Source of the DNA: Candidatus Nealsonbacteria bacterium
GTDB lineage: Bacteria > Patescibacteriota > Minisyncoccia > Minisyncoccales > RBG-13-42-11
DNA: 64,000 nt
Assembly (NCBI GenBank): GCA_026396095.1
Contig: JAPLXK010000014.1
Coordinates: forward strand, 212 to 64,211
Reading direction: 5' to 3'
The notes below the pieces were generated by a model, which saw only the letters and a list, made by a program, of their open reading frames with translations, was not told the origin of the DNA and made no database searches. A program made the position numbers and the translations under genes. Positions 107-48,742 of the stretch are shown in pieces; positions within the stretch are counted from its first letter, which is position 1, and each line of letters opens with the position of its first letter.

Positions 107-550
107 TTAAAATAAGGACTCCTTTATTTTTTGTATCATGTAATTAGCAATCGGAGGATAAATATCTTCTTTAATTTTTTCAACTAAATCTAGGGAAACC
201 CATTTGTAGCTTGAGTGTTCTTCGGCAAGTATAACATCCTGATTTTTCCCAACGATTTCGCATACCCATATGGTGCCCTTTATCTTTATTTTGCCACGAG
301 CTGTGATTATTTCATCGGAAACCTCGTCGGCCACCTTTCTTATGGGCCTTACGTCTAAATTGGTTTCCTCTTTTACTTCTCTTATGGCTGCCTCCTTATC
401 ATTTTCGCCTTCTAATATGCCTCCTTTTACGGGTTCCCATTTTTTATTGTCTATCCGCTGAAGTAAAAGCAGATTGTTGTGTTGATCTAAAATAAGCGCC
501 ATCACCCCACAAACATTCCCGTCAACAATCTTTGTTTTTTCTGTTTCCAT
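107..550 (-). CDS. NUDIX hydrolase
   Basis: 147-aa ORF. Nudix box GGILEGENDKEAAIREVKEETNL fits GX5EX7REUXEEXGU. Confidence 0.85.
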   Translation of the reverse strand: METEKTKIVDGNVCGVMALILDQHNNLLLLQRIDNKKWEPVKGGILEGENDKEAAIREVKEETNLDVRPIRKVADEVSDEIITARGKIKIKGTIWVCEIVGKNQDVILAEEHSSYKWVSLDLVEKIKEDIYPPIANYMIQKIKESLF

Positions 551-553
551 ATA

Positions 554-1315
554 TTATTGTTGTTTTTCTCTTTTAATGGCTATCAAATTTTTATTTTTAC
601 CACTTTCTAGTTCTTTTAAAATATCTTCTATCAGCTCCTTTGCGCTAAAAACGCCCTTTTTATTATATCCCCTCTGCAGCTTCTTGGTTATTTTTTTATG
701 CTCCGGATATGCTTTTGTCGCTGCCTTGAATTCCTTAAGCCAAATAGGCGTGTTTTGAACAATTACATTAAATATTTCAGAAGCATCCCAAATTAAAAAA
801 TCATTTTTTCTTTTATCGTATTTCGGATAATTTTTAAGGAAATAATCATAAAATTTAAAATGCAGCATCTCGTGAGCAATAACTGCATTCACGTATTTCT
901 TGTTTTTGTGCACATAGGGTATTTGAAATGTTTTATCTTCTAGAAAGCGCGGGTACATTCCCCATATTGTTAAATAGGCTATATATTTCCCCTTTGGCCA
1001 ATAATTATTTTTAAATAATTTATCAGTTAATAGGTAAAATTCTTTCTCTAATTTTCCCCAACTTTTTGGGTACAGAGCCAAGCCTTTTTCCATGATTCTG
1101 CCCTTTTTTGCATAAATATCCAAGACGAATTTTTTGACCTTATCTTTTCCTATTTCAATAGAATTGTTGCTTTTATACCTTTTAAAAAATGGATATTTTT
1201 GGAAAATGGCCCAATCTAAAATCTTGCCATTGTCGTATCTGGCATCGCTAATAAAGCAATAAAAGGTTCTCATGTCTTTTTTTGAATCTAATTGAAATTT
1301 TATCTTCGGATACAT
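554..1315 (-). CDS. Hypothetical protein with HExxH motif (possible zinc-dependent hydrolase)
   Basis: 253-aa ORF with a 3-nt gap to the downstream Nudix gene. The only recognisable signature is AHEMLH (HExxH). Confidence 0.3.
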   Translation of the reverse strand: MYPKIKFQLDSKKDMRTFYCFISDARYDNGKILDWAIFQKYPFFKRYKSNNSIEIGKDKVKKFVLDIYAKKGRIMEKGLALYPKSWGKLEKEFYLLTDKLFKNNYWPKGKYIAYLTIWGMYPRFLEDKTFQIPYVHKNKKYVNAVIAHEMLHFKFYDYFLKNYPKYDKRKNDFLIWDASEIFNVIVQNTPIWLKEFKAATKAYPEHKKITKKLQRGYNKKGVFSAKELIEDILKELESGKNKNLIAIKREKQQ

Positions 1316-1386
1316 AAAAAGAGGACAGCTTTTAATCTATCCTCAATATAACATGGTTGTCATTCTTGTGCTTTTACTTACTATTT

Positions 1387-2955
1387 TTATCTTCTAATGG
1401 GTAATTCAATAAAAACTGTACTTCCTTTTCCTTTACCGGGCGACTCAGCCCAGATTCTGCCGTTATGAAAATCTACAAAGCGCTTGGCAATATGAAGGCC
1501 CAAGCCGGCTCCCTCTGCAGAAAGCTTGTTCCCGGCCGAACCCCTGGAAAAGCTTTTAAATAGTTTTGATATTTCTTCTTCTGCCATTCCGTCTCCTGTA
1601 TCAGATATCTCAATTCTGACTTTTGAATCATGGCTTTTTGCCCTTATAGTAACTCCTCCTTGGTTGGTATATTTTATGGCATTATCCATCAAATTCATGA
1701 TCACCTGCTTCATTTTGTCTTTATCAATAAAAATCTTGGGCAAAGAAGCTTCCGGTTTTTCCAGCTTCAGATAAAGCTTCTTCTTTTCTGCCTGCATTTT
1801 TGTTTCCTCCATCGCCAGGTTAATTACCTCTTCTATCGGAGTTTCTTCAAAATTCATGTCCACCCCTCCCGCTTCAATGCGGGAAATATTTAAAAGCTCA
1901 TTTATCAGCTTTATCAGCCTCTCGGTTGATTGATACACATTTTCTATGGGCGGTCTGTTCTTGTCGGTTAGCTTGCCATAACTTCCCTCAAGGAGCAAAG
2001 AAACATATCCCTTTATGGCTGTTAAGGGAGTTCTTAGCTGATGGGAAGCAATTGAGACAAATTCCGATTTGGCCTTATCAAGTTTTTGAAGTTCTTGATA
2101 GGCGTCTTGAAGTTTTTCTCTGTATTTAATTTCCTGCAAGACACCCCGAACAAGAAGAGATCCTGAAATGGTAAAAAGAAAGAATAGGGATCCTCTCCAA
2201 ATATAATCAAATGTTGATTGAGAGAGAAAAATTTGAACTAATAATAAGATACCAATCGCTCCAACTAAAATTTCTGTTAGAATCACTTTTATATCAAAAA
2301 GGTGATACCTCGCCACGGCAACGGCGGTAAGAATTATATAGAGGACCACCAATCCATTGCCGACGGGAGGGATGGGAACGTTATACCATAAAAAATAATT
2401 GGTCGAACCACCAAGAAACCCAATTAAAGTTCCTAATAATATGTATTGTATTTGTACCTTTTTTTGACCCTCGGAGTGCTCATGTGCCTTAGCTAATAAC
2501 CACCAAGAATACATCGCCCACGTAAAAAACATTAAAAGATAAAAATGATATAAAATTCCTGGTTCTGCCCAAAATTTAAATCCAAATTTGGGAACCATAT
2601 CTCTAATGAAAAGATTGGTAAAATCAAATATTAAAAAAACAAAAGATAAGAAATAACCAAAAATAAGGAGTTTCTTTTTCTTTTCACCCAAGTCTAAAAA
2701 TGTGAGCACGAAATGTAAATAAGTTGTTGAAACAAAGATGGAACCAATATGCAAGACGCGAAATGCGAGAAGAGCTGTATTTTTATCTTGAGCTCCGGGC
2801 CAAAAAATATAGGCCCAGCTCCAGGCTGCCACGCTCAAACAAAATAAAGCAAATTGTCGGTTGACTGGATTTTTTTTATTCGTAAGATAAACAAAAAGAC
2901 CTAAAAAGCTACTGGCGATAGCATTAATTAGGCCTGTTAAAACATAATAAAGCAT
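1387..2955 (-). CDS. Sensor histidine kinase with polytopic membrane N-terminal domain
   Basis: About 270 aa of consecutive hydrophobic helices. H-box SIASHQLRTPLTAIKGY, N-box MNLMDNAIKYT, G-boxes DTGDGM and GAGLGL. Confidence 0.85.
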   Translation of the reverse strand: MLYYVLTGLINAIASSFLGLFVYLTNKKNPVNRQFALFCLSVAAWSWAYIFWPGAQDKNTALLAFRVLHIGSIFVSTTYLHFVLTFLDLGEKKKKLLIFGYFLSFVFLIFDFTNLFIRDMVPKFGFKFWAEPGILYHFYLLMFFTWAMYSWWLLAKAHEHSEGQKKVQIQYILLGTLIGFLGGSTNYFLWYNVPIPPVGNGLVVLYIILTAVAVARYHLFDIKVILTEILVGAIGILLLVQIFLSQSTFDYIWRGSLFFLFTISGSLLVRGVLQEIKYREKLQDAYQELQKLDKAKSEFVSIASHQLRTPLTAIKGYVSLLLEGSYGKLTDKNRPPIENVYQSTERLIKLINELLNISRIEAGGVDMNFEETPIEEVINLAMEETKMQAEKKKLYLKLEKPEASLPKIFIDKDKMKQVIMNLMDNAIKYTNQGGVTIRAKSHDSKVRIEISDTGDGMAEEEISKLFKSFSRGSAGNKLSAEGAGLGLHIAKRFVDFHNGRIWAESPGKGKGSTVFIELPIRR

Positions 2956-2982
2956 AAACGGAAGCTAATTATTTAAAAATAT

Positions 2983-3867
2983 TTATGGCTTCGGCGTCCC
3001 AATCCCCATAAAATGAAATCCGTAGGAATCAGTAAATCCTTTTTTCCAAAGATATCCAGCTTGATCAAATATTTTTTTAAGTTTTTCCTCATTTTTATAA
3101 ACGAAATCCCAGTTTGCAACCCAGTTCATTATATAACAAGCGAAAGGATCTTCTTCTTTCATCTTGTCTGTAACATTACTTGCAATTATGCAACCACCTT
3201 CTTTTAGAAGCCCTCTAGCTGTTTGAAGTATATTAACACATACCTCGCTTTGTAGGGCACATAAAATTCCAACAAGAATTACGATGTCAAATTTCTTTTC
3301 CGGTTCGTATTTCAAAAAACTTCCTTCAACAAAATCAATTAGATGATCAACTTTTTTAATGCTTGCTATTCTTTTTCCTCGTTTTAAAGCCGTAACGTCT
3401 CTATCAACATTAATTGCTCTTATGTTAGAAAAATTTTGATAATACTTAGATAAAACGTCAACTACATCTCTACCAGGACCAGAACCAAAGTTACCAATTA
3501 GAACTTCTCCTTTTGGGCTATATTCCTCAATAACCTTATGAAGCTCGTCTTCTACGGCATCTAGGCGAGCTTTTATCGCACTGCCAGCCTTAGATTTAAG
3601 TGCGTAACTATCAAGGATAGATTGCGAAGGTAATCGCTCGTAAAGAAATTCTGTAACCATGGAACTCGCGTTTTGAGCTGCCATTGCCGAAAAGAAAACG
3701 CTATTATTAATGAAATACTCATGCGCCTCTTCTTCGACTTGAGGGTCAGAGGGTAGCCCCCTGTAATTATCAATAAGAAAATCTTTTATCCTTTTATTTT
3801 TTTCCTCAAGATCTTTGAATAATTGAAGAGATGCCTCGTCAAAATTACTTTCCTTGTCTTTTTCCAT
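2983..3867 (-). CDS. Class I SAM-dependent methyltransferase
   Basis: 294-aa ORF. Glycine-rich SAM loop LIGNFGSGPGRD followed by an acidic-residue strand pattern. Confidence 0.65.
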   Translation of the reverse strand: MEKDKESNFDEASLQLFKDLEEKNKRIKDFLIDNYRGLPSDPQVEEEAHEYFINNSVFFSAMAAQNASSMVTEFLYERLPSQSILDSYALKSKAGSAIKARLDAVEDELHKVIEEYSPKGEVLIGNFGSGPGRDVVDVLSKYYQNFSNIRAINVDRDVTALKRGKRIASIKKVDHLIDFVEGSFLKYEPEKKFDIVILVGILCALQSEVCVNILQTARGLLKEGGCIIASNVTDKMKEEDPFACYIMNWVANWDFVYKNEEKLKKIFDQAGYLWKKGFTDSYGFHFMGIGTPKP

Positions 3868-3871
3868 GGAA

Positions 3872-4124
3872 ATTAAAAATATTATAGCTTTTTTTGTTTT
3901 GCCGATTCTTTCTTTAATCTTACTAAATTATCGCTTAAATAACAACGAGCCCTGATTATATGAGGCCCTACGATGCGATCAGGCGCACCAAACAATAATT
4001 TGATCCTATAACATCTTTTACGATATTTCTAGCTAAGACCTAGCTTTTGACCTACCTTAGGATCTAAGTTTGTTGTAAACAATTTTTTGATTTCTTTTGG
4101 CTTAACCCACCTAATTTCAGCTAT
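3872..4124. repeat. Direct repeat copy A (~250 bp), homologous to 5141..5378
   Basis: By-eye alignment gives blocks at roughly 85% identity. Examples: ttaaaaatattatagctttt vs ttaaaaattatagctttt, and ctagctaagacctagc...cttttgg(c/t)t(t/c)aacccacctaatttcagctatt. Confidence 0.7.
4029..4124 (-). pseudogene. Remnant of a Nudix gene 3' end (last ~31 codons only)
   Basis: Translates to IAEIRWVKPKEIKKLFTTNLDPKVGQKLGLS*. The intact Nudix at 5283..5714 ends IAEIRWVEPKEMKKLFTTDLDSKVGHELGLS*. Upstream homology is cut off by the stop codon of the alpha/beta hydrolase gene. Confidence 0.65.
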
Positions 4125-5017
4125 TCTATCCAATTCTTAACCTTCTCGGCCAATTCCTTTTCTTTATTCTCAAAAGAGTGATTCGCCCCCCGGACAACCT
4201 CAACTCTACTTGGTTTATTTTTAATATTTCTTTTTAACAAATTAGCAATGGTTTTAATGTTTTTACTGAAAAAATATTTATCTTTATCCCCCATTAAAAT
4301 CAGAATTGGAATTTTTATTTTAGCTAATATTTTAAAGTCAGTTTTTTTATTATGAAAGGGGAAAACGTTCTCGCTGCTATTTTCTGAATACAGACTCGAA
4401 AATCTTTGATAAGAAATTGGAAATTCTAACCTATTGCCTAGGATTGGGAGGAGACCGAATCCTTTTCTTGTCATTTCTATCGATTCTTCAAGTAAACCCT
4501 GAAAATCCTTTCCCAATTCTTTTCTTCCGATAAGAATATTGCTGCCGGGCGATATAAATATTGCAGCGATTATTGCCCTATCGCCGTTTTGGCTGAGATA
4601 ATAGCCAACCTTATCTGCGCCGGAGCTTATGCCAGCTAATAATATTTCTTTAAATCCCTTCTTTTTCAAAAAACCTACACCAGCGCTAATATCAAGCACG
4701 CAATCCTCAAATCTTTCCATAGCTGAGCCTAAAACCCGGTACCCTCCCTTCTCCTTATGAGTTATGTTTAAAATATCGTGACCTCTCGTATTTAATGCCA
4801 AAACCGCAAACCCCACACCAATAAAGGCTTCTATTATCTTTTGGTTGCTTCTGAAATTTCCCGGAAAGCCGTGGATGAAAAGGATTGCCCTGTTCCTATT
4901 TCTTAAATTAAAAAATAGTCCATCCAAGACAAGTCCATCTCTTGTCTTAATTTTTTCAACTGAATATTTCATTAAGTAACATATAACACAAAAAAGATGG
5001 TTGAAATATCCAACCAT
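4121..5017 (-). CDS. Alpha/beta-fold hydrolase
   Basis: LFIHGFPGN oxyanion-region motif and nucleophile elbow GISSGAD (GxSxG). A more likely start is Met16 (coordinate 4972). Confidence 0.75.
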   Translation of the reverse strand: MVGYFNHLFCVICYLMKYSVEKIKTRDGLVLDGLFFNLRNRNRAILFIHGFPGNFRSNQKIIEAFIGVGFAVLALNTRGHDILNITHKEKGGYRVLGSAMERFEDCVLDISAGVGFLKKKGFKEILLAGISSGADKVGYYLSQNGDRAIIAAIFISPGSNILIGRKELGKDFQGLLEESIEMTRKGFGLLPILGNRLEFPISYQRFSSLYSENSSENVFPFHNKKTDFKILAKIKIPILILMGDKDKYFFSKNIKTIANLLKRNIKNKPSRVEVVRGANHSFENKEKELAEKVKNWIE

Positions 5018-5140
5018 TTTTGTTCAACATTTAGTCCAATTTTGGAGTTTGCCGCGCCAGTCGTCGGCTCGAGCTGACTCCTGTTCGTTCTTTACTTGGG
5101 AAAGAACGGTTTCAATGAACTCTTCTTTAGACATGTTGTT

Positions 5141-5378
5141 TTAAAAATTATAGCTTTTCTTAATTTTTTCTAATCTATCCTTAATCCTACTAAATTATTA
5201 CTTAAAAAACAATGAGGCATGCTTATACAAAGAACTATAGCGCACCCAAGTGCGCCACAGAGAATTACTTTTATCAATATCTCTAGCTAAGACCTAGCTC
5301 GTGTCCTACCTTAGAATCTAAATCTGTTGTAAATAATTTTTTCATTTCTTTTGGTTCAACCCACCTAATTTCAGCTAT
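5141..5378. repeat. Direct repeat copy B (includes the 3' end and downstream flank of the intact Nudix gene)
   Basis: Homologous to 3872..4124 (see copy A). Confidence 0.7.
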
Positions 5379-5714
5379 TTCATGAGGATTTTTTGGTTTT
5401 GCTATCGGTTCTTCTGATAGCAGCTTACAAAGATGATAAACAATAAATACCGGAAATTGAGGATGGATTCTAGATGAAATTTCTTTGATAGATTCAACTT
5501 TATAACCGGTTTCTTCTAATATTTCCCTCTCAACACACTCTTTTTTGCTTTCATTTTTATGCAATCTGCCCCCCGGAAACGCCCAGCTTAAAATTGATTT
5601 ATCCTTTCCTCCTTCTTTTTTGGCCCGCTTAATTAACAGAACCTCCTTATGGCTATTAATGACTATTCCTAGGTTGATAGTTTCTTTAACGTTGCTAACG
5701 GAAGGCCTTTTCAT
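5283..5714 (-). CDS. NUDIX hydrolase
   Basis: Nudix box GGRLHKNESKKECVEREILEETGY. Confidence 0.85.
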   Translation of the reverse strand: MKRPSVSNVKETINLGIVINSHKEVLLIKRAKKEGGKDKSILSWAFPGGRLHKNESKKECVEREILEETGYKVESIKEISSRIHPQFPVFIVYHLCKLLSEEPIAKPKNPHEIAEIRWVEPKEMKKLFTTDLDSKVGHELGLS

Positions 5715-5841
5715 ATTTTTATACTATCAAAAAATCGCCTTTCGGGAGATTTGTAAACCAGAATTCGCTTTAATATTTAAGTGCATCTCTTCCCTAAAAA
5801 TAAAAGGGAGCTTTAGTTCTCCTTTTGATAAAATCCTGAGT

Positions 5842-7293
5842 TTACCTATTAACAAAAATTGGTTGTGCTGACAATTTCATTGAAACGGGTAGTGGTCTAA
5901 ATGGCATGTTGTTTGTTTCATCAAGAACCTCCTTTATCAACTCATCTAATTTCATCTGTTTTTGTTTTCCGTCTTTTCTTATTCTGGCAGAAATTTTTTG
6001 ATTTTGGATTTCTTTGTCACCGATTATTATTACATACGGTATCCAATTTTTTTCAGCATCTCTAATTTTTTTATTTAGAGTTTCGTTACGATCATCAAGT
6101 TCAGTTCTTATTTTCTCTTTATTGAGTTTATCCGTTATTTTCAGTGAATATTCAACTTGCCTTTCGGTTATCGGAAGTATTCTTACTTGAATCGGCGACA
6201 ACCATAAAGGTAGGATTGGAACTTCTTTTTTTAAAGCTTCTTCAAGTATAGAAAATATCCAACGCTCTATTGAACCAACTGAGGAATGACATATGATACA
6301 TCCCTGATTTTTTCCCTGTTCATTAACGAAAGTAATTCCATAGCGTTCAGCATCTTCAATGTCTAATTGAACAGTAGATAATTGACAATTACCGTTCACT
6401 GAATCAATGAATTGGAATTCGTGTTTTACTGCCCAATAGTGTTTCATTTCCGAGAGAATCTCAATTAAAGCAGGTTTTCGACTGTATTTTAGAAGCTTTA
6501 TGATGTTTTCTTTATATTTTTCATAAAAATCTTCTACTATTCTGAATACAATAGCGTATTCTATTTTAGTTTCATCCGCTAAGTCAGCATAGTTTTCATA
6601 AAGACTTTTATATTCGTTCCATCCCTGGTCCAAATCACGGCAGAAGCAATGAATATCAGGCATACTAAAAGCTCTGAGCCTCCTTAATCCAACCAATTCA
6701 CCACTTCTTTCGTATCTGAAGCTATTAGAGAATTCGTAAATTCTTACTGGTAAATGTTTATAGCTCATATTTACATTCTTCATCATTCTAAATAACCCGA
6801 AATCACCAGCAAACCTTAAAATTAGTTCTTTTTTCTTGGTGGGTCCCTGAACCCTATAATGTCTTTCGTGGAATGATTCTCCTTGAGCCTTAATGTCCGG
6901 TTGGGACCAATCATAAATTAAAGGCGTACCAATTTCCATAGCATTAAAACGTTTTATGGCAATCTCTTCGGCCCAATCCCTCAATAAATTATAAATTAGC
7001 ATTCCTTTCGGATAAAACCGGAAATGTCCCGGATCGCTTGCTGATTCATAATCAACTAACTCTAAAGCCCTCATGGCTTTTACAGAAGGAGGTTCTTTCC
7101 CCAAAGATGCATCTTTCTGGAGAATTTCTATGTTAAGAAGTTTCTCTAGGGCTACGTTGTTTTTAATTATTGGGATTTCTTTTAGGTTACTTTTTTCGTC
7201 TATGCCAAATTCGTCTCCATTAGGAGATAGAATGCAAAATTTACTCTGAATTCCTGAAATTTTTTCTTCTCGTCCCATAAGTGGTGCAGACAT
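5842..7293 (-). CDS. thrS: Threonine--tRNA ligase, short archaeal-like form without an N-terminal editing domain
   Basis: Class II core: FRFYPKGMLIYNLLRDW, and RLRAFSMPDIHCFC (compare RVRGFTQDDAHIFC). C-terminal anticodon-binding domain: PLWLSPIQVRILPI...KKIRDAEKNWIPYVIIIGDKE. Only about 85 aa precede the catalytic core. Confidence 0.75.
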   Translation of the reverse strand: MSAPLMGREEKISGIQSKFCILSPNGDEFGIDEKSNLKEIPIIKNNVALEKLLNIEILQKDASLGKEPPSVKAMRALELVDYESASDPGHFRFYPKGMLIYNLLRDWAEEIAIKRFNAMEIGTPLIYDWSQPDIKAQGESFHERHYRVQGPTKKKELILRFAGDFGLFRMMKNVNMSYKHLPVRIYEFSNSFRYERSGELVGLRRLRAFSMPDIHCFCRDLDQGWNEYKSLYENYADLADETKIEYAIVFRIVEDFYEKYKENIIKLLKYSRKPALIEILSEMKHYWAVKHEFQFIDSVNGNCQLSTVQLDIEDAERYGITFVNEQGKNQGCIICHSSVGSIERWIFSILEEALKKEVPILPLWLSPIQVRILPITERQVEYSLKITDKLNKEKIRTELDDRNETLNKKIRDAEKNWIPYVIIIGDKEIQNQKISARIRKDGKQKQMKLDELIKEVLDETNNMPFRPLPVSMKLSAQPIFVNR

Positions 7294-7500
7294 CTTTTTT
7301 TCTCTCCTTTCAACTATTTTTTAATATTACCTCGACTTTTCTTTTCGGGCAAACAATATAGAAATAATTAGCTAATTCTTTTTTGACGCAATAAATTTAA
7401 AAAAAATCGTCCGAAAGGCGAGCGTCTTGAGAAATCGTGCTAATTCCTCCCAGATTTATAGCGAGGGTAGAATCCGGGGTGCTTCAAATATTTGTTAAAG

Positions 7501-8082
7501 TTAACTCAAGATTGGTTTTTTTAATTCCACTTTATTATTTTTTATTTCAAGCACCACAACTTCAGCTGGCATATATTGATATTTTTCTATTTTTTTTAAC
7601 GAAATGACGGTAAGGGATTTAAGGATTATTTTAATAATAGTAACGTGGGTAACTAATACTATATTTTTATTTTTCTTGATTAATTTTTTTACTAAAGGCA
7701 TTACTCTTTTTTCTGCGTCTTTGTAGCTTTCACCTTGGGGCATGCTAAAATTCCATTTATTTCTTTTTCTTTTTTTAAAAATTTCTGGGTATTTCTCCTC
7801 CGCCTCTTCTAATGTTAATCCCTCAAATATCCCAAAATTTACTTCTCTCAACTGCGGAACTATATGAATTTTCAAATTTAAACATTTTGTTAATTCTTCT
7901 GCGGTCTGAATACATCTCCTTAAATTACTCGTATAAATTTCTTCTATATTTTTATTTTTAAGTTCTAGAGCGACTCTCTTTGATTGTAAAATACCTTTTT
8001 TGGTCAAAGGTAAATCCGTGTAACTTAGAAATCCTATTTTACTCCAACTAATTTCACCGTGACGAACTATAAATAGCCTCAT
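7501..8082 (-). CDS. Histidine phosphatase family protein (phosphoglycerate mutase-like)
   Basis: N-terminal LFIVRHGE (RHG catalytic motif); 193 aa. Confidence 0.8.
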   Translation of the reverse strand: MRLFIVRHGEISWSKIGFLSYTDLPLTKKGILQSKRVALELKNKNIEEIYTSNLRRCIQTAEELTKCLNLKIHIVPQLREVNFGIFEGLTLEEAEEKYPEIFKKRKRNKWNFSMPQGESYKDAEKRVMPLVKKLIKKNKNIVLVTHVTIIKIILKSLTVISLKKIEKYQYMPAEVVVLEIKNNKVELKKPILS

Positions 8083-8090
8083 AATCTAAC

Positions 8091-8546
8091 TTATCTTTGT
8101 TGCCATTTCTGACCGCACTTGTTTTGAATTTTTGCATATTTGAATGTTTCTTTAATGTAATTTTTTACATTGGGAGGAAACTTAAACTTATCAATCTCAA
8201 TCTCTTTAATCCATTTTACTTCATCGGTATCTTCTAAGGGCTTGGCTTTTCCGCTTTTATATTGGCAGATAAAAACAATAGCCAAGGTTAGCTGACCATC
8301 TTCAGAGTGCTGAAAAACATTGCTATAAATTATAGCTTCTGGATTTACTATCAATCCTATTTCCTCTTTAATTTCTCTTTGAACGGTTTTTTGGAGAGGA
8401 TAGATAGCATTATTTAGCTCCATTTTTCCACCAGGCAAACACCATCTTCCTGCCTGATGTTTTTCTTTCTCGCTTCTCTTGATGATTAAAACCTGATTAT
8501 TTAAGAAAACCGCCCCATTGACTAAAACTGAATATTTTTTTACCAT
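8091..8546 (-). CDS. NUDIX hydrolase
   Basis: Nudix box GGKMELNNAIYPLQKTVQREIKEEIGL. Confidence 0.85.
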   Translation of the reverse strand: MVKKYSVLVNGAVFLNNQVLIIKRSEKEKHQAGRWCLPGGKMELNNAIYPLQKTVQREIKEEIGLIVNPEAIIYSNVFQHSEDGQLTLAIVFICQYKSGKAKPLEDTDEVKWIKEIEIDKFKFPPNVKNYIKETFKYAKIQNKCGQKWQQR

Positions 8547-8637
8547 TTTTGTTTCATTGATTGGCTAAATAGTCCGCTAAGCTTCATTATTTATAATTAA
8601 TTATAATATAATAAGCTTGCTTTTAATAAATCTTTTC

Positions 8638-9141
8638 TTAAAAACTGCCAAACCGCCAATGAGCTTTTTCTTCACCAAATTTTTTAACATAATAAGCGTC
8701 GATATTGTCTTCTATGTTATCCTTAAGGTTAAATCCTAGTTTTTTAGCAATTTTTTTAATATTTTTTTTCTTTCCCTCTATTTCACAAAAAACACCTATA
8801 GGATAAAAATCTATACAAATTTCATATCCTTGTCTGATATACAAAAATCTGATCTTTTCGTAAGAATTTTCAAGTTTTAAGTTTTTAGATAATGTTTTTA
8901 TCTTTCTTTCTCTTACCTTTTTAATCTTACCGTCTAACCATTTAGTTTTTTCATAAATTATTTCTTTATTTCTGCCGGAAAAAACTAATCTTTTTCTTAT
9001 TTTTTCCTCTTTAAATCCCTTGCCCGAGCCATAAACCTCATCTAAAATATAGGCAATTTTAGGAGGAGCGCCTCCTATTTTTTCAAACAATTTTTGAGCA
9101 TTTCCGACCGGAAACTTAAATTCTAATTCAATTTTTTTCAT
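8638..9141 (-). CDS. CYTH domain protein (triphosphate tunnel metalloenzyme, CyaB-like)
   Basis: N-terminal IELEFKF (ExExK). Basic strands KIRKRL and VRERK. C-terminal acidic strand VFCEIEG. Confidence 0.7.
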   Translation of the reverse strand: MKKIELEFKFPVGNAQKLFEKIGGAPPKIAYILDEVYGSGKGFKEEKIRKRLVFSGRNKEIIYEKTKWLDGKIKKVRERKIKTLSKNLKLENSYEKIRFLYIRQGYEICIDFYPIGVFCEIEGKKKNIKKIAKKLGFNLKDNIEDNIDAYYVKKFGEEKAHWRFGSF

Positions 9142-9951
9142 TTATTCTTTAAAAAATAGATTTTCAGCTAGGCTATAAAAAACGTTTTTCTGTTCGTCTT
9201 TACGAAAAACGCGCTCCACGAGTTTTATATAAGGTGCTACTTCGCATAATGACGTATCTTCTCCGCTATAATCTGTACCAAACATCACCTTCTTTTTAAC
9301 TTCCGGATAATATGAAAATACCCTGGACAAGTCTTTGATGTATTGATTTAAAATATCTCTCGCATCTTCTTTAGAGGATAGTCTCTCTATGGTTCCTGAA
9401 ATTTCCGTAAATACATTTTCATTTTTATATATAACCGTAGCGGTCTCTAATTGATAAGGGAATCCGAAATGAGAAATAATTATTTTACATTTTGGAAATT
9501 TAACAGCTAATTCATCTATATATATTGGATGTGCATACTTAAACAAAGCTTTTTTATCAACAGAATATGTGGTCCCCGAATGAAATATTAAGGGTTTGTT
9601 GTATTTTTGGCAGAGATCTGCGGTTGGATACACCTTTTCGTCCGAGGGATAAAAATATTGATAACCAGGATATAATTTTATTCCAAAGATTTTCTTCTCA
9701 CGAAATAATTTTTCAAGTTTTTCTAACTGTTCATTTATATTGCTTTCAATATTTACGGTCCCGACAAGAAAAAGATTGTTCTTTGTAGAGATAAAACTTA
9801 GCAAATCTTCTAAGTTTTGTTCATGCCAAGCCATAACTAAAACCTTTAACTCTCTGCCCTTTGTTTTACTAAGGTAGGTTTGATATGTTTCTTCGGTATA
9901 AATATGGGTATGAATATCGATAATCATAGAACATGACACCCTCTCCGCCAC
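9142..9951 (-). CDS. Amidohydrolase-family (TIM-barrel metal-dependent) hydrolase
   Basis: IIDIHTHIY metal-binding HxH motif close to the N-terminus. The start may be Met9 (9927). Confidence 0.7.
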   Translation of the reverse strand: MAERVSCSMIIDIHTHIYTEETYQTYLSKTKGRELKVLVMAWHEQNLEDLLSFISTKNNLFLVGTVNIESNINEQLEKLEKLFREKKIFGIKLYPGYQYFYPSDEKVYPTADLCQKYNKPLIFHSGTTYSVDKKALFKYAHPIYIDELAVKFPKCKIIISHFGFPYQLETATVIYKNENVFTEISGTIERLSSKEDARDILNQYIKDLSRVFSYYPEVKKKVMFGTDYSGEDTSLCEVAPYIKLVERVFRKDEQKNVFYSLAENLFFKE

Positions 9952-9969
9952 AGAAGCGGTAGGGTAATT

Positions 9970-10509
9970 TTATAGCTTAGACTCTATTTTATTAGTAAAT
10001 TTTTTAATTTCTTCGTCTGTCATCAGCTTAATACCCAACTCATCGGCTAAATTTTTAATTTGCCCCTCTGCGTATTCTTTTTTCTTGGGGCTACCAACAA
10101 CGATCTCCATTTCAATGTGGTATTTCCAATGTTTACTATATTTTACCGCAATCTCTATTCTTTTATAAAGATAGTTATGCCTCTTTTGCCAACTCTTCAT
10201 TGATTTACCCGGTAGGCTTAAGTGATCAAATATCTTAACGGCAGCCTCGTAGTCCGCTGAGTCAATTTTAATTTCCCATTCGCGAAAATCGCTCCCATGT
10301 CCAATACGGCGATCCTTTAATACGATCTTCGCCTTATTTTTGCTAGTCTCATTTACCACCTTAAATAATTTACCTGGCAATATATAAAAAACCGTCTCTT
10401 TATCGTCTTGACCCAGGTCTTTAGCATTTTTTTCTAAAAAACTATCTAACCATTCATACTTCTTTTTAGAAATTATAGCCCTGAATTCTATCTCTATATT
10501 GTTTGACAT
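9970..10509 (-). CDS. CYTH-like domain protein
   Basis: IEIEFRA N-terminal strand (ExExR), REWEIKI, and C-terminal HIEMEIV acidic strand. A divergent paralog of the two neighbouring CYTH genes. Confidence 0.55.
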   Translation of the reverse strand: MSNNIEIEFRAIISKKKYEWLDSFLEKNAKDLGQDDKETVFYILPGKLFKVVNETSKNKAKIVLKDRRIGHGSDFREWEIKIDSADYEAAVKIFDHLSLPGKSMKSWQKRHNYLYKRIEIAVKYSKHWKYHIEMEIVVGSPKKKEYAEGQIKNLADELGIKLMTDEEIKKFTNKIESKL

Positions 10510-10569
10510 AAAATAAACTATAATTAACGGTTATTAACGACTATCCCTAGGTTGATAACTCCCTTAACG

Positions 10570-11136
10570 TTACTTCTTTTCATTTTTTTCTAAAAGCATG
10601 ACTGGGTATCCTTTTTTAATATAATTACCTTCAACGTCTTTAATCCCAAGCTCTTGAAGAAAGCTCATGCATTCTCTTCTTGCTTCTGCCGTGCCTCCGA
10701 AGTCTCCTTTTGCTTCTACTTCCACGAAATATCCTAAGCCCTTAATGTCATCTAAAGCGATTTCTAAATTACCGCAAATCCAGTATTCTCTTTGTTTTTC
10801 TACGGTCACGATTTTTTTAAAATCTAAAAATGCCAGAATCTTTTTAAGCTCTTCGGGATTGGAAACATCTGTCTCGTATTCTTCGGCATATTCCTGATCG
10901 CCGTCCTCCTTTGTGTTTATAGATTTATCGTATTCAAAAATTACCCTATCGGGGTTGGTTCTTATCCTTAACCATTCTACAGGATGAGGCTTATTGGCAA
11001 AGAAATCTCTATGGCAAAGAATATAATAATCATCAATTTGTTTTATTGATTTTATCAGCCTTCCCAGCGCCGATACTTTTTTCTTAATTTCCTCGAGATT
11101 ATCTACTCTTATTTTTATTTCAACCTCTATATTCAT
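10570..11136 (-). CDS. CYTH domain protein (class IV adenylate cyclase / triphosphatase family)
   Basis: MNIEVEIKIRV (ExExK), WLRIRT, LEIALDDIKGLGYFVEVEAKG. Confidence 0.8.
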   Translation of the reverse strand: MNIEVEIKIRVDNLEEIKKKVSALGRLIKSIKQIDDYYILCHRDFFANKPHPVEWLRIRTNPDRVIFEYDKSINTKEDGDQEYAEEYETDVSNPEELKKILAFLDFKKIVTVEKQREYWICGNLEIALDDIKGLGYFVEVEAKGDFGGTAEARRECMSFLQELGIKDVEGNYIKKGYPVMLLEKNEKK

Positions 11137-11179
11137 ATTTTTATTTTTGTCTTTAAAATGTTACTAACCTAAAATACTT

Positions 11180-12169
11180 TTAATGCTTCAATATCTCAAT
11201 CTTTGACTTTTCAGCGATAGCTATCACCTTTACCACTCCGCCTATCGGGTAAGTTATTATTGGTCTTGTGTGGCCGAAATCGACATCTGCAATAACTGGA
11301 ATTTTGGATAATTCTTTTTTTGATAAAACTATCTGATCGAGCAAATAGCTTTCCATTTTACTTTGTTTTTGAAATCTTCCGATTATTAGCCCTCTGACCC
11401 CATCAAATCTTTTTTGGTGGATTAGCGATTGAAGATCCCGATCAAATAATGAGGAATCGGAAGATTCGTCATCTTCGACAAACAAAATTGAATTATTTAG
11501 GTCCGGAAAATATTCGGTACCCTGTAATAGGTTTAAGGTGCAAAGATTAGCCCCAATAATTGTTCCCTCCGCTTGCCCTTTATTAATTACACGCCAACCC
11601 TTATTCCTGATGAGATGTCTGTTTTCTTGATTTTCGTACCATGCATCATCGCTCCAATTCCCGCTAGGCTTAATATCAAAAGGATTATTGCTCATTAGGC
11701 ATTTCTTGAAGTAGTCCATTGAATAATCAAAATATAGCTTTTGTCCAAAAGTAGACCACGCCGGCCCCGAGTAGGTAACTAATCCTGCCTTCGCTAGCAT
11801 GGCGTTTTGCAAGGCAGTTGTATCTGAATAGCCAATAAAAATTTTGGGATGATTTTTTATAAGATTCCAATCAATGTAACGTAAAAGCTGATTGCAATTA
11901 AATCCTCCTATAACCGAAAGCACGGCGTCGATAGAATCGTCGCAAAAGGCGTCATGTAAATCTGTAATGCGCGAGGAGATGCTTGATGATAAAAAATCAT
12001 CGCATTCTTTAACATATTTACCAAAGCTTATATTAAGCCCTAATCCGGCAAGTCGTTCATTTGCAATCTTCCAATTCTCTGCCGAAATAATAGCTATTGA
12101 TCTTGAGGGAGCGACGACTCTTATATTCGAACCCTTTTTAAGTTTTTTGGGAAATTTTACTTTTATCAT
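11180..12169 (-). CDS. LD-carboxypeptidase (peptidase S66, LdcA/MccF-like)
   Basis: IRVVAPSRS, nucleophile motif IGYSDTTAL, and C-terminal DFGHT. Confidence 0.8.
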   Translation of the reverse strand: MIKVKFPKKLKKGSNIRVVAPSRSIAIISAENWKIANERLAGLGLNISFGKYVKECDDFLSSSISSRITDLHDAFCDDSIDAVLSVIGGFNCNQLLRYIDWNLIKNHPKIFIGYSDTTALQNAMLAKAGLVTYSGPAWSTFGQKLYFDYSMDYFKKCLMSNNPFDIKPSGNWSDDAWYENQENRHLIRNKGWRVINKGQAEGTIIGANLCTLNLLQGTEYFPDLNNSILFVEDDESSDSSLFDRDLQSLIHQKRFDGVRGLIIGRFQKQSKMESYLLDQIVLSKKELSKIPVIADVDFGHTRPIITYPIGGVVKVIAIAEKSKIEILKH

Positions 12170-12181
12170 TTGATAATAAAA

Positions 12182-12604
12182 CTATTTCAATTTAACCCAG
12201 AAAAGTTTTTTATCTTTAAGCCATTTTAGGGCTGATTCTTTTAGAATTACCGGTAAGATGTTCTCTTTTGCGAGTTGTTTTTTATCAAAAAGAAAGAATT
12301 GAATATGTTCTTCTTTGCTTTTGGTGGTTATTTTGTTTACTTTAGCGGCGAAAAATAAATTAATTTCGTGATGTTTCTTGTTGTTTTTAGTCCAAATGTG
12401 TTCTGATCCGCCGATAAAAAAGAATTTTTTAATTTTAAAACCCAATTCTTCGTTTAATTCACGCTCCAATGCCTCTTCTGCGTCTTCCCCTGGTTCTATG
12501 TGTCCACCAGGAAAGAAAAAGTATTTTCCCCCTATTTCTCTGCAAACCAAAATTCTTCCCTTGTCTTGAATCAACGCTCTTGCTACTGCTTCAATTTCTT
12601 TCAT
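12182..12604 (-). CDS. NUDIX hydrolase
   Basis: Nudix box PGGHIEPGEDAEEALERELNEELGF. Confidence 0.85.
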   Translation of the reverse strand: MKEIEAVARALIQDKGRILVCREIGGKYFFFPGGHIEPGEDAEEALERELNEELGFKIKKFFFIGGSEHIWTKNNKKHHEINLFFAAKVNKITTKSKEEHIQFFLFDKKQLAKENILPVILKESALKWLKDKKLFWVKLK

Positions 12605-12629
12605 AATTTTAAATTAATAAAATCAAGGA

Positions 12630-13172
12630 TCATAAATCTAAAAGCATTACAATTTCATCTTCTAATTTCCCTTTATATTGGAGCTGTTTTGGGATTTTAG
12701 CTACCTTCCGGAATCCTAATTTTTTATAAAGCGCCTGGGCTGATTTATTTCCTTGAAAAACATTTAATCTAATGGTTTTCGGCTTTGGCCTTAACTCTTT
12801 CTTGGCTAATTTTATTATCTCTTTCATCATGTGCGTTCCCAGTCCTATTCCCCTATAACCATCTTTTATGGAAATCGCAAAATATCCTATGTGATCTTGA
12901 CAATGTGTTCCTTTCTCAACATTTACACTGCCTACGTTTTCATTGTTAAATTCGGCTAATAGACAAACCTCTTCGTGTTTCTTGGTCCTTTGCAATAATC
13001 TTTTAAGCCATTCCCTTTCTTCTTTTAAAGAAATCCTTTTGTTTATTAGAATTCTAGCTCTTTCCTTAACTAAAGAATTGATAAAAACCTGAAACTTTTT
13101 GACGTTCCTCAAGTCTTTTTGAGATATTTTTCTGATTAATATCCTTTTTCCGTTAAAAATTTTAGTTTTCAT
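12630..13172 (-). CDS. GNAT family N-acetyltransferase
   Basis: Acetyl-CoA loop YRGIGLGTHMMKEIIKLAK. Confidence 0.75.
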   Translation of the reverse strand: MKTKIFNGKRILIRKISQKDLRNVKKFQVFINSLVKERARILINKRISLKEEREWLKRLLQRTKKHEEVCLLAEFNNENVGSVNVEKGTHCQDHIGYFAISIKDGYRGIGLGTHMMKEIIKLAKKELRPKPKTIRLNVFQGNKSAQALYKKLGFRKVAKIPKQLQYKGKLEDEIVMLLDL

Positions 13173-13848
13173 GGTTTTTTAAATTTTTAACCACACTAGC
13201 CACCTCTCTTAAGCTCTTTATGATTGCATCTGGCTTATATATTTTTAAAACTTTTTCGTCATTTTTTCTCCACCACCCTTTCTTTTTGTTTTTTAACCAG
13301 ATTGTTCTCATTCTTAAGCCAGTCGCTGCAACTAAATCTTCTGAAAGTTCGTCAGCAATAAAAACCGCCTGATCCGCCCTGATAGAAAGTTTTTTTAGGG
13401 CTTCGTAATAAATCACTCCATCTGGCTTTCTGGCTCCGATTTTTGAAGAAATAATTACAACATCAAATAGATCGTTAATTTTATAATTTTTAAGTATTGG
13501 CATAACCCAGCCCTGAACGTTATTAGATAAAATTCCAATCTTATATTCTTTTTTTAATTTTTTTATAATCTCAACGTTCTCTTTGGGTATAAAATGATTT
13601 TCAATTGTAAATTCAATTATCTTTTTAACCGGAATTTCCTTTTTTGTGATTCTCCTCATGAGAAACTCTAACTCTTTGTCGCTTTTTATTTTTCCCGCAG
13701 ATCTTAAGATATATAGATTTCTCCAAAGCGGAAGGAGTTTGCGCCAATTCAATCCGAAAGGAGCTAAAATTTTATTTATTTTTTTATCCCTATTTTTAAA
13801 ACCGCTAGTAATAGTATAGCCAAAGTCGAAAAGTATTGCTTTTATCAT
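13162..13848 (-). CDS. HAD-superfamily hydrolase
   Basis: Motif I ILFDFGYT (only the first Asp is present), motif III/IV-like K...FIADE. Overlaps the downstream GNAT by 11 nt. Confidence 0.65.
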   Translation of the reverse strand: MIKAILFDFGYTITSGFKNRDKKINKILAPFGLNWRKLLPLWRNLYILRSAGKIKSDKELEFLMRRITKKEIPVKKIIEFTIENHFIPKENVEIIKKLKKEYKIGILSNNVQGWVMPILKNYKINDLFDVVIISSKIGARKPDGVIYYEALKKLSIRADQAVFIADELSEDLVAATGLRMRTIWLKNKKKGWWRKNDEKVLKIYKPDAIIKSLREVASVVKNLKNHEN

Positions 13849-13893
13849 GTTCTTTTATTTTATTGAAAAATTACCTGATGACGCGTAGAAATA

Positions 13894-14442
13894 TTAATTT
13901 TTCTTTAACCATTGATATGCTTTTTTCCAAAGATTAGTACCGTCGACAGATTCCTTATTATTATTCTGAGCTTCTGCAATTGTATATTTGCTTTTACCTA
14001 ATACAACCACCCTATCAGACGATAATCCGATTCCTTTTGGCCGATTAACAAACTTACCCTTAATTATTTGCTTGAATAACTTTGATCCTTTTGACGATAT
14101 TGCACAAATTATATTCTCTAAAATAATTGATTTATCTTTTTTGCCCTTCATTAAGCTTAAAAAATCTTCTGCTTCAAGCCACTGATTAATATAATGCATA
14201 TATGGTCCGGGAAAACCCTTAAGGGATGGAATATTCCACCCTGAGTCGCTCACAATAAGTGGTTTTTTTAAAACTTCAAATGCCTGCTTTGCCTTGTCCT
14301 TAACGATATTTTCAATCGAATCGGATTGGATTTCTTTAATCCTTAATTTTTTCTGGACCAAACCAAAACCAAGCTTATCGGCGTATATTTTAGCGTTTTT
14401 AAACTTATATCTGTTTCCTGTGATATAAAATATTCTTTTCAT
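13894..14442 (-). CDS. Ham1/RdgB-like non-canonical purine NTP pyrophosphatase
   Basis: FYITGNRYKFKNA (TGNxxK) and SDSGWNIPSLKGFPGPY (D.G....L.G.PG). Confidence 0.7.
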   Translation of the reverse strand: MKRIFYITGNRYKFKNAKIYADKLGFGLVQKKLRIKEIQSDSIENIVKDKAKQAFEVLKKPLIVSDSGWNIPSLKGFPGPYMHYINQWLEAEDFLSLMKGKKDKSIILENIICAISSKGSKLFKQIIKGKFVNRPKGIGLSSDRVVVLGKSKYTIAEAQNNNKESVDGTNLWKKAYQWLKKN

Positions 14443-14456
14443 CCCCTTACTCTATC

Positions 14457-14479
14457 AAAAAATCGCCTTTTGGGCGATT
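14457..14479 (-). terminator. Rho-independent terminator after the GNAT gene
   Basis: Minus strand reads AATCGCCCAAAAGGCGATTTTTTGA: a GC hairpin followed by a T-run. Confidence 0.65.
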
Positions 14480-14570
14480 TATGCTTTTTATATTTTTTGG
14501 CTCAATTTTTTCAATTTTTGATTGCATTTTCTTCTTTTTGCTGATAATAATATCTAATAAAAAATTTTGC

Positions 14571-15113
14571 TTATTTTAAGTATTCTTTTCGCAAGATACC
14601 ATAAACTAGGTCGTCATACCATTTATTTTTAAAATACGTTTTCCGCCTTAATTTACCTTCTAATTTAAACCCCAATTTTTTAAACAAATTTTGAGCTAAA
14701 ATATTTCTATGAAGAACGCGGGCCTGGATTCTTTCTAGTTTTAATTTTTCGAAACCAAACTTAAGCATCAAGTTTAATGCCTCTTTTGCTAACCCTTGCC
14801 CCCAGTATTCCTTAGATATCCAAATTCCTATCTCTGAATTTTTGTTTTTTTTATTGATGTTTAAAAAATTAATCGTTCCGATTAACTCCTTTTTTTCCCG
14901 CAACTCAATACCAAACTCATAAGCCATTTTCTCTTTTATGTCTTGTTGAGTTTTTTTAATAAATTTTTTAGCCCTGACAAGATTAAAGGGTTGTTGAATT
15001 ATGTGGGTATATCTTGTAACGTCCTTATTCTTGGCGCTGTTACTAATGAACGACGCATCTGAACTTTTTAGTTTTCTTAATCCAATTTTTTTACTTTTTA
15101 TATATGTAGTCAT
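14571..15113 (-). CDS. GNAT family N-acetyltransferase (RimJ/RimL-like)
   Basis: WGQGLAKEALNLMLKFGF acetyl-CoA loop; 180 aa. Confidence 0.75.
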   Translation of the reverse strand: MTTYIKSKKIGLRKLKSSDASFISNSAKNKDVTRYTHIIQQPFNLVRAKKFIKKTQQDIKEKMAYEFGIELREKKELIGTINFLNINKKNKNSEIGIWISKEYWGQGLAKEALNLMLKFGFEKLKLERIQARVLHRNILAQNLFKKLGFKLEGKLRRKTYFKNKWYDDLVYGILRKEYLK

Positions 15114-39413: not shown

Positions 39414-39559
39414 AATAAAATATTATATCATGAGCCAAACAATTGAGAAAATAAGACTAAAGATAATAATTTTGTTGATATCTTGGGGAAAAACTGTGAA
39501 TCTGCGCTGGAAAACAAGCTCCATTGAAAAAATATCTAACTTATTATAAGATTAATAAC

Positions 39560-39694: not shown

Positions 39695-39698
39695 GAAA

Positions 39699-43294: not shown

Positions 43295-43299
43295 ATATA

Positions 43300-43941: not shown

Positions 43942-43942
43942 T

Positions 43943-48741: not shown

Positions 48742-48742
48742 A

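Follow-up and report, generated by a model that had tools for sequence, protein, structure and literature searches.

Here we describe a run of 19 minus-strand genes at positions 107–15113 of a 64-kb window (the whole stretch of DNA analysed) from the chromosome of a Candidatus Nealsonbacteria metagenome-assembled genome (MAG), a member of the candidate phyla radiation (CPR). The genes form an unbroken series in the list of open reading frames (ORFs), and ten of their products are matched exactly in the NCBI protein range MCX6760734–MCX6760751. An earlier note on this DNA had reported 19 such genes between 107 and 14442 as one island dense in nucleotide and phospho-metabolite hydrolases. The count is right, although the series ends at 15113 and 18 of the 19 genes lie inside 107–14442. 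As a unit, however, the 19 genes are a mosaic of small modules that carries passengers, was recently rearranged and sits between conserved flanks, and not a fixed operon. We interpret it, with moderate confidence, as a flexible, laterally exchanged island enriched in genes for the sanitation and salvage of a scavenged nucleotide pool.

Four intact Nudix hydrolase genes are present, as had been proposed, and all pass the Pfam profile PF00293 (49–72 bits; gathering threshold, 21.1 bits): Nudix1 (107–550; 58 bits), Nudix2 (5283–5714; 72 bits), Nudix3 (8091–8546; 49 bits, with NUDIX_4 at 39 bits) and Nudix4 (12182–12604; 62 bits). The Nudix box GX5EX7REUXEEXGU is canonical in Nudix1 (GGILEGENDKEAAIREVKEETNL), Nudix2 and Nudix4, and has a longer, non-canonical loop before the core REIKEEIGL in Nudix3; the REx2EE core is intact in all four. 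Their description as paralogous enzymes is correct at the superfamily level. They are only 22–38% identical to one another, over partial lengths, and three of the four have a clearly closer ortholog in another genome (Nudix3, 95%; Nudix2, 83% and 71%; Nudix4, 51%). The best match of Nudix1 (36%, at L019:11665; L0xx names denote comparison contigs carrying related genes) is no clearer than its local paralogs. Judged by these identities, the four appear to be old, distinct lineages, with a weak grouping for Nudix1, and recent tandem duplication was ruled out, weakly so for Nudix1.

Prediction of Nudix substrates from subfamily signals failed. The best NCBIfam matches reach 36–55 bits against cutoffs of 98–259 bits, so that no equivalog level is attained and no substrate can be assigned. 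The sole specific, subfamily-type pass is that of Nudix4 to the Nudt16-like Pfam domain (PF22327, 31 bits; threshold, 27 bits). The closest solved relatives are all weak (E values of 1e-7 to 1e-9): an Ap4A hydrolase (E = 1e-9) or NudB for Nudix1, NUDT1/MutT for Nudix2, MutT for Nudix3 and MutT/RppH for Nudix4. In the 20 residues after each Nudix box, judged by eye, there is no Tyr or Pro at the positions regarded as diagnostic.

Three genes had been assigned to the CYTH or triphosphate tunnel metalloenzyme (TTM) superfamily; of these, one is a solid case, another is demonstrated here and the third is weak. The solid case is CYTH_CyaB (10570–11136), which scores 70 bits with PF01928 and 90 bits with TIGR00318 (cutoff, 58 bits). 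The second, a divergent TTM-like protein (8638–9141), has no Pfam or NCBIfam match, and its family (about ten homologs at 45% identity or more among 5.8 billion clusters) goes undetected by PF01928, unlike known TTMs. Aligned against a CYTH alignment, however, this family gave an hhalign probability of 93.8% (E = 1.7e-7); L022:10676–11188, at first taken for a second viral homolog, was removed because it is a DPPY methyltransferase with no relation to the family. The AlphaFold model made with the ten-sequence alignment has a mean predicted local distance difference test score (pLDDT) of 85 and a predicted template-modelling score (pTM) of 0.81, compared with a pLDDT of 47 for the single-sequence model, and shows a predicted eight-strand β-barrel tunnel fold. 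The top 20 Foldseek matches of the model in the PDB are all TTM, class IV adenylyl cyclase (AC-IV) or PH1819-type structures (E values as low as 1e-8; TM score 0.6–0.74), the best being PH1819, Sulfolobus SaTTM and class IV adenylyl cyclases (TM score about 0.7; 2een, 7ns9). The third protein (9970–10509) is probably CYTH-like but marginal, at 16.2 bits with PF01928 (threshold, 23.2 bits) and 19 bits with TIGR00318, and a search of the PDB with it gave no CYTH match.

A profile made from 117 remote homologs of the TTM-like protein, 86 of which are ordinary CYTH proteins by phmmer, links the three. It scores 96 bits with the TTM-like protein, 80 bits with CYTH_CyaB and 11.3 bits (E = 2.6e-4) with 9970–10509, and at most 3 bits with any other island protein. 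An N-terminal ExExK and a C-terminal ExE motif are the hallmark of TTMs (PMC8233210), and the corresponding motifs are EVEIK and VEVE in CYTH_CyaB, ELEFK and CEIE in the TTM-like protein and EIEFR (Lys to Arg) and IEME in the weak case; in these motifs, and in the predicted barrel of 8638–9141, the trio resembles SaTTM, PH1819 and class IV adenylyl cyclases. CYTH_CyaB is labelled a class IV adenylate cyclase in its NCBI record. Its closest solved relative is SaTTM (Saci_0718; E = 1.5e-10), which had likewise been labelled a cyclase but acts as a triphosphatase and forms no cyclic nucleotide (PMC8233210). By this relationship, CYTH_CyaB is more likely to be a triphosphatase than a cyclase. Elsewhere, a TTM-like family member with 46% identity lies on a 76.8-kb contig classed as viral in IMG/VR (L022/L036, IMGVR_UViG_3300033150_002805), which also bears HNH, Dam-type methylase and TnpB genes, and another is annotated from a Hodarchaeales (Asgard) MAG.

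The remaining hydrolases named in the earlier note (Ham1, histidine phosphatase, HAD, amidohydrolase and α/β hydrolase) were all matched in Pfam, and its superfamily assignments as a whole held up in profile searches. The Ham1/ITPase-like protein (13894–14442), 'hypothetical' in its NCBI record, passes Ham1p_like PF01725 (66.6 bits; threshold, 22.5 bits). It is divergent: it scores 117 bits with NF011396 (cutoff, 203 bits) and 78 bits with TIGR00042 (cutoff, 145 bits), and by eye it seems not to have the usual C-terminal GFGYDP-type motif. The branch 1 histidine phosphatase (7501–8082) matches His_Phos_1 at 169 bits and falls under the CobC and PspA cutoffs. The HAD-IA phosphatase (13162–13848; HAD_2, 66 bits) has a sub-threshold match to YjjG-type nucleotidases (61 bits) and overlaps by 11 nt the gene for the first GNAT acetyltransferase (12630–13172; Acetyltransf_1, 56 bits). 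The Amidohydro_2 metal-dependent hydrolase (9142–9951; PF04909, 72 bits) abuts the TTM-like gene with a 0-bp gap, and the α/β hydrolase (4121–5017) matches Abhydrolase_1 at 39.6 bits as well as Hydrolase_4. Both GNATs that had been listed were matched, the second of them (14571–15113; RimJ/RimL-like, Acetyltransf_3 at 100 bits) lying beyond 14442.

The clustering of nucleotide and phosphate hydrolase genes is not due to chance, and the unusual density remarked on earlier is thus borne out. Among the 41 larger ORFs scanned between 15.2 and 62 kb (ORFs below 100 amino acids and two at 62075–63560 being left out), there was no Nudix, CYTH, Ham1, HAD or histidine phosphatase gene. When genes were placed at random among 1173 genes, the number of coding sequences in a closed Nealsonbacteria genome, the probability of at least four Nudix genes within 19 genes ranged from 3e-5 (with four Nudix genes per genome) to 0.044 (with 20 per genome). 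Ten genes of these classes within 19 genes occurred in 0 of 1e5 trials, even with 40 per genome. These results, together with the occurrence of the same families side by side in other CPR contigs, are the grounds for judging the clustering non-random. The shared strand, by contrast, needs little explanation: minus-strand genes to the left of dnaA and dnaN are co-directional with replication, which largely accounts for the same-strand run.

Scatter of these genes in related genomes was looked for, and they were again found side by side: Nudix, CYTH, Ham1, MazG, Maf, HD and NDK genes adjoin one another in L019, L021, L024, L027, L032 and L034. The TTM-like family, which is rare, is a better anchor for such comparisons than thrS. 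In L019 (103 kb, CPR)/L020, a Nudix fragment, CYTH, Nudix, TTM-like, the Nudix4 ortholog (51%) beside TTM-like, HD/YfbR-like and a further Nudix gene occur with a methyltransferase, three GNATs (one of them a 52% ortholog of GNAT2) and a homolog (39%) of the zincin-like protein of our window just upstream of a Nudix–AdoHcyase fusion. L021 carries a Nudix fusion, AAA_18, Ppx-GppA, Maf, CYTH and TTM-like genes; L024, NDK, a 317-amino-acid protein, TTM-like and a Nudix2 ortholog (72%); L027, TTM-like, MazG and AAA_18; L032, rtcA, Ham1-like, Nudt16-like Nudix, Nudix3 and, further on, a 7TM kinase; and L034/L035, CYTH_CyaB overlapping Nudix2. Thus the theme of nucleotide pyrophosphatases and triphosphatases side by side, with GNATs near, recurs, and the exact arrangement does not. 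The gene order of the whole island is not kept in L002, L003, L018, L019 or L032, and only sub-modules come back: CYTH–Nudix2, TTM-like plus Nudix, rtcA–Ham1–Nudix–Nudix3…kinase, and zincin–Nudix. In the searchable literature, we found no description of Nudix clusters in CPR bacteria or Patescibacteria, of such a reshuffled cluster of genes, or of three side-by-side TTM genes linked to Nudix, MazG and Maf.

The comparison with L032 reveals the mosaic. The variable region lies between two conserved flanks, the divergently oriented RNA 3′-phosphate cyclase gene rtcA (15234–16268, plus strand; RTC, 220 bits) and the 7TM sensor histidine kinase gene (1387–2955; HisKA_7TM, HisKA and HATPase_c). This interval holds 16 genes in the window and five in L032 (Ham1-like, Nudt16-like Nudix, Nudix3, a small ORF and a shikimate-dehydrogenase-like gene). 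The flanks are 70% (rtcA) and 72% (kinase; 53% in amino acids) identical in DNA, and the Ham1-like proteins, equally placed beside rtcA, are 41% identical. Nudix3, by contrast, is 95.5% identical in DNA over 426 nt (8129–8554 versus L032:1885–2310), in a block that runs from 8 nt before the start codon to 38 nt before the stop codon. A recent gene-sized exchange best explains this pattern, and the block looks like a lateral exchange or gene conversion of a single gene.

Nudix2 records a second rearrangement. In L034/L035, which are close relatives (90% DNA identity), CYTH_CyaB overlaps an intact Nudix gene that is 83% identical to Nudix2. In the window this ancestral pair is split: a 19-codon 5′ stub of Nudix2 (10529–10583, repeat D6) directly follows CYTH_CyaB, collinear with the overlapping pair of L034/L035, and the intact gene stands 4.8 kb away, behind the genes for the weak CYTH-like protein, Amidohydro_2, TTM-like, Nudix3, histidine phosphatase and thrS. 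The start of the intact Nudix2 is fused to a module composed of a hairpin, a T-run and ATGAAAAG (5707–5752; repeat D7, 83%). The module has exactly two matches in the 64 kb, against none expected, the second (14435–14480) being upstream of the Ham1-like gene; it also precedes the Ham1-like gene of L032.

The single Nudix remnant that had been noticed is real (about 4029–4125) and is a 3′ stub of Nudix2; with the 5′ stub, it brings the number of Nudix2 stubs to two. Its translation, EIRWVKPKEIKKLFTTNLDPKVGQKLGLS*, matches the C terminus of Nudix2, and it aligns with 5125–5400; it is 95.5% identical to the L034 Nudix gene, compared with 88% for intact Nudix2. The stub and an adjoining terminator- and promoter-like intergenic module (3889–4028) make up one copy (3889–4125; repeats D1 and D2) of a direct repeat of about 235 nt that brackets the α/β hydrolase gene, and because the repeat lies on both sides we consider this gene to have been inserted or duplicated in. 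The second copy of the intergenic module (5156–5282, repeat D2) is downstream of Nudix2 and has a terminator-like hairpin at 5260–5235. A core of about 75 nt, with a hairpin, a T-run and AAAGCTATAAT, is found at 3889–3960, at 5156–5227 and at L032:2531–2613 (84%), and from its sequence it is probably a terminator plus promoter. An Rfam scan of the window returned only tRNAs, and no match for the intergenic modules. Just upstream of the α/β hydrolase gene is a 36-codon ORF, MSKEEFIETVLSQVKNEQESARADDWRGKLQNWTKC (5024–5134), with no known domain; it is among the genes called for the Logan contig L001.

The L019 sister island also holds decayed genes, at 8306–8541 and 9138–9476 (two pieces matching Nudix3 and one DegT fragment), which makes gene decay a property common to these islands. 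A shift in composition is shared as well. The G+C content at third codon positions (GC3) is 0.31 in the island genes compared with 0.41 in genes beyond 23 kb (Mann–Whitney P ~ 1e-7), with a gradual transition at 15–18 kb. It falls likewise in L019, from 0.40 in the flank to 0.31–0.34 in the island, and in L032, from 0.44 in rtcA to 0.30 in Ham1/Nudix.

In its conserved flanks, variable content, lower GC, gene fragments and one cassette that is near-identical across about 30% DNA divergence, the region is like other flexible genomic islands. It differs from them in having no integrase, transposase or flanking tRNA: none of the first two was found in the profile-scanned ORFs, and the nearest tRNA is at 20005. 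A prophage or plasmid segment was ruled out by this lack of mobility genes and by megablast searches that gave no match in phage and plasmid collections, although the composition is atypical and the left boundary of the region is outside the window. Phage transfer of Nudix3 or CYTH_CyaB was rejected too, since only distant viral relatives were found (viral Nudix, 29–41% identical). GNAT and Nudix genes frequently abound in chromosomal integron cassette arrays, and the island shares with these arrays same-strand small genes, GNAT and Nudix content and cassette-like replacement. An integron array was nevertheless ruled out: there is no IntI or other integrase domain and there are no attC sites, many spacers (0–45 bp) are too short for attC, and the gene ends share no imperfect inverted repeats.

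Family membership, the mosaic structure, the recurrence in other genomes and the shift in composition are direct observations, from which the sanitation and salvage role and every substrate are inferred. Taken together, these features suggest the following scheme. An AT-rich flexible region, from rtcA at 15.2 kb leftwards past the 7TM kinase to Nudix1, has gathered small stand-alone hydrolases that act on nucleotides and on phosphoanhydrides or phosphoesters: four Nudix of different subfamilies, three CYTH/TTM proteins, a Ham1/ITPase-like protein, a HAD phosphatase and a histidine phosphatase. Most probably they share the upkeep of a scavenged nucleotide pool. The Nudix and Ham1 enzymes may clip non-canonical or surplus (deoxy)nucleoside triphosphates and diphosphates to monophosphates, the TTM enzymes may remove triphosphate or inorganic triphosphate (PPPi)-type compounds, and the HAD and histidine phosphatases may dephosphorylate the products for salvage. 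Small modules (overlapping CYTH–Nudix2, TTM-like beside Nudix, Ham1–Nudix–Nudix3 and zincin–Nudix1), several with their own terminator-like or promoter-like spacers, make up the island. Related lineages exchange these modules, which are also gained by insertion, lost and duplicated, and with them travel unrelated passengers (thrS, LD-carboxypeptidase, GNATs, methyltransferase and α/β hydrolase).

Four lines of evidence point to sanitation and salvage. The superfamilies are those of the classical house-cleaning pyrophosphatases (MutT/Nudix, Ham1/ITPA-RdgB, MazG and Maf), and the catalytic motifs of the island proteins are intact; unlike those enzymes, the island proteins have no equivalog-level score. 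House-cleaning genes are also scattered in model organisms, whereas up to ten lie within 15 kb here. In mammals, ITP and IDP are removed by ITPA (Ham1) together with NUDT16 (PMC2875033, PMC2919730), an enzyme pair that would be mirrored by the Ham1-like protein and the Nudt16-like Nudix, encoded in one tight gene run here and adjacent in L032. MazG, Maf, HD and NDK genes occur in the sister clusters. Finally, Ca. Nealsonbacteria are reported to be biomass-recycling epibionts of methanogens that are unable to make nucleotides (10.1101/2022.04.20.488981), with which the scavenging lifestyle invoked in the earlier note agrees.

Several observations weigh against this assignment. About nine of the 19 genes have no obvious nucleotide link, and NCBIfam equivalog cutoffs were missed by every Nudix, Ham1, HAD and histidine phosphatase match. 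Promoter and terminator scans gave counts not above the shuffled background, for which reason transcription units were deduced from spacing and the two repeated hairpin modules. An assembly join might, in principle, account for the low GC; however, the shift is gradual and the rtcA–Ham1 junction is supported by L032. Lastly, the poorly kept gene order and the pseudogene stubs indicate turnover that would equally fit a neutral dumping ground.

The last point leads to the best placed of the alternatives, which we consider unlikely. In a neutral recombination hotspot, dispensable small genes pile up and decay, and Nudix, GNAT and CYTH genes would be over-represented simply because they are short, common and easily transferred, with no functional coupling. 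The varying content between conserved flanks (five versus 16 genes), the stubs and repeats, the low GC typical of flexible gene pools, and unrelated passengers that include the essential thrS, whose neighbours differ in relatives, are all as expected for such a site. Three observations speak against such a hotspot: in five independent contexts the same few nucleotide-hydrolase families adjoin the rare TTM-like family, together with genes for other nucleotide enzymes (MazG, Maf, NDK and HD); some gene pairs overlap or adjoin in the manner of translational coupling; and the catalytic motifs are intact.

The earlier note had offered the turnover of nucleotide-derived signals as an alternative, which the evidence does not favour. 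In a wider form, the enzymes would control signalling or storage phosphates such as cAMP, Ap4A, (p)ppGpp, polyphosphate or triphosphate, perhaps directed by the neighbouring 7TM histidine kinase; this reading is improbable. The kinase is a conserved neighbour, and CYTH_CyaB passes the 'class IV adenylate cyclase' model TIGR00318 and bears that name in its NCBI record, but its closest solved relative forms no cyclic nucleotide (PMC8233210) and no response regulator is nearer than the single one at a distance of 24 kb. SaTTM prefers PPPi and has been linked to polyphosphate metabolism, Ap4A hydrolases are the best solved relatives of Nudix1 and a Ppx-GppA gene lies within the L021 cluster. Against this, profile scans of the window showed no protein that binds cyclic nucleoside monophosphates and no phosphodiesterase, RelA/SpoT or PPK, and the Ham1, MazG and Maf partners point to nucleoside triphosphate sanitation.

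We consider quite improbable a conflict system, that is, a defence or counter-defence island that would deplete or break down nucleotides, or signals made from them, when phages attack or in contact with a host. The region is hypervariable, AT-rich and laterally exchanged as defence islands are, and a TTM-like family member lies on the IMG/VR viral contig. All four Nudix proteins match the PADLOC candidate PDC-S07, but these are generic Nudix-domain matches; among the ten of 19 island proteins scanned, PADLOC returned this single-gene candidate plus noise-level matches and no complete system. Neither profile searches nor PADLOC revealed a nuclease, a sensor, a STAND- or TIR-like domain, a toxin or a restriction component in the island, which also has no similarity to phage or plasmid records and only the distant viral Nudix relatives mentioned above. 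Compared with known defence and accessory islands, nucleotide and phosphate hydrolases dominate here and not defence, toxin–antitoxin or mobility genes, and an essential aminoacyl-tRNA synthetase is included.

Very improbable is a role in RNA-end metabolism, in which, with the divergent rtcA, RppH- or Nudt16-like Nudix proteins and RNA-triphosphatase-like TTMs would act on both RNA termini (5′ triphosphates or caps, and 3′ ends): the rtcA–Ham1 adjacency is kept in L032, Nudix4 has its Nudt16-like match and a weak RppH similarity, and Cet1-type RNA triphosphatases have the TTM fold (PMC8233210), but Foldseek places RNA triphosphatases far below the small triphosphatase (PPPase) and AC-IV types of TTM, RppH equivalog cutoffs were all missed widely and there is no RtcB or RNA ligase. 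All four alternatives have less support than nucleotide sanitation and salvage.

If the island does serve sanitation and salvage, it bears on a largely unexplored question, namely how CPR bacteria that have no nucleotide synthesis of their own and live off other cells handle the quality of imported nucleotides. The recurrent, fast-reshuffled cluster provides concrete, testable candidate enzymes for this problem, and gives the little-understood CYTH/TTM superfamily consistent genomic partners (Nudix, MazG, Maf and NDK) that hint at a physiological role. It adds a small TTM-like family invisible to Pfam and, for CPR lineages, a clear example of lateral exchange at the scale of one gene. Current views are not overturned, as the enzymes belong to well-known superfamilies and the arrangement defines no new kind of system. 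As a broader and doubtful proposal, CPR bacteria may share, by lateral exchange, a pool devoted to nucleotide-sanitation cassettes of one gene each (Nudix, TTM, Ham1, MazG, Maf and HD). These would reside, as in defence islands, in AT-rich hotspots between conserved genes and tune the cell to damaged or non-canonical nucleotides or to nucleotide-based toxins or signals from the archaeal host or prey, with the TTM-like family as a core, possibly virus-shared component acting on a new substrate.

The other genes of the island are probably companions. As the earlier note had stated, thrS and a histidine kinase gene are interspersed among the hydrolases; its list had omitted the LD-carboxypeptidase, methyltransferase and zincin-like genes. 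The archaeal-type threonyl-tRNA synthetase (ThrRS; 5842–7293), 100% identical to an NCBI protein from a Ca. Nealsonbacteria MAG, matches NF003068 at 531 bits over profile positions 147–612 of 613 and has no editing domain. In relatives with 53–75% ThrRS identity, thrS has an Amidohydro_2 gene upstream and PqqD, radical-SAM/SPASM and methyltransferase genes downstream, and no island. On the strength of this different context, we regard thrS as a passenger that moved in. As a synteny anchor in the genome, metagenome and protein collections, thrS was poor, since its neighbours differ even at 75% identity. The short form (474–499 amino acids) is also found in other CPR bacteria, and the archaeal homologs retain the editing domain PF08915; no free-standing editing protein for Ser-tRNA(Thr) was seen in the window.

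The S-adenosylmethionine (SAM)-dependent methyltransferase (2983–3867; Methyltransf_31, 42.6 bits) and the LD-carboxypeptidase of peptidoglycan recycling (11180–12169; Peptidase_S66, 114 bits; S66C, 96 bits) are further passengers, as, probably, is the zincin-like (HExxH) protein of 253 amino acids (554–1315), whose gene is separated from Nudix1 by 3 bp. The latter has no Pfam match and belongs to a CPR-wide family of 276 homologs, mostly from Patescibacteria and about 240 amino acids long, in which H148, E149 and H152 and many aromatic residues are invariant. Members show weak DUF3267, DUF5700 and SprT-like matches, and a PDB profile search gave no solved relative. Its gene directly precedes a Nudix gene in this island and in that of L019, whereas in L030 it does not.

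Beyond the island, profile searches showed an ordinary CPR core genome: Mur ligase, holA, fpg, pilB, ruvC, tyrS, penicillin-binding protein, dnaN, dnaA, yidC, type IV secretion system (T4SS)-like genes, polynucleotide phosphorylase and CCA-adding enzyme. The genes dnaA and dnaN are at 36.7–39.4 kb. In the segment 36751–40270, an 857-bp gap, which contains a 167-amino-acid ORF with a TTG start and no annotation (39536–40039), separates dnaN and dnaA from yidC; the gap probably places the replication origin at about 39.4–40.3 kb. Beside it is a T4SS-like cluster (41501–52525) with a VirB4/TraG-type ATPase, a PrgI-like protein and two large proteins with T4SS-pilin-like N termini. Several proteins near this cluster, including ones of 657 and 551 amino acids, have no domain match.

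Immediately to the right of the island, the segment 15234–22320 encodes RtcA (with no RtcB), DUF498, a TIGR00375 PHP-type protein, a SLOG/LOG-like protein and an Elp3-like radical-SAM plus GNAT protein. Several of these families are mainly archaeal, and the gene run would fit gene flow from archaeal hosts. The SLOG/LOG-like protein (18177–18758) is another possible nucleotide-processing enzyme.

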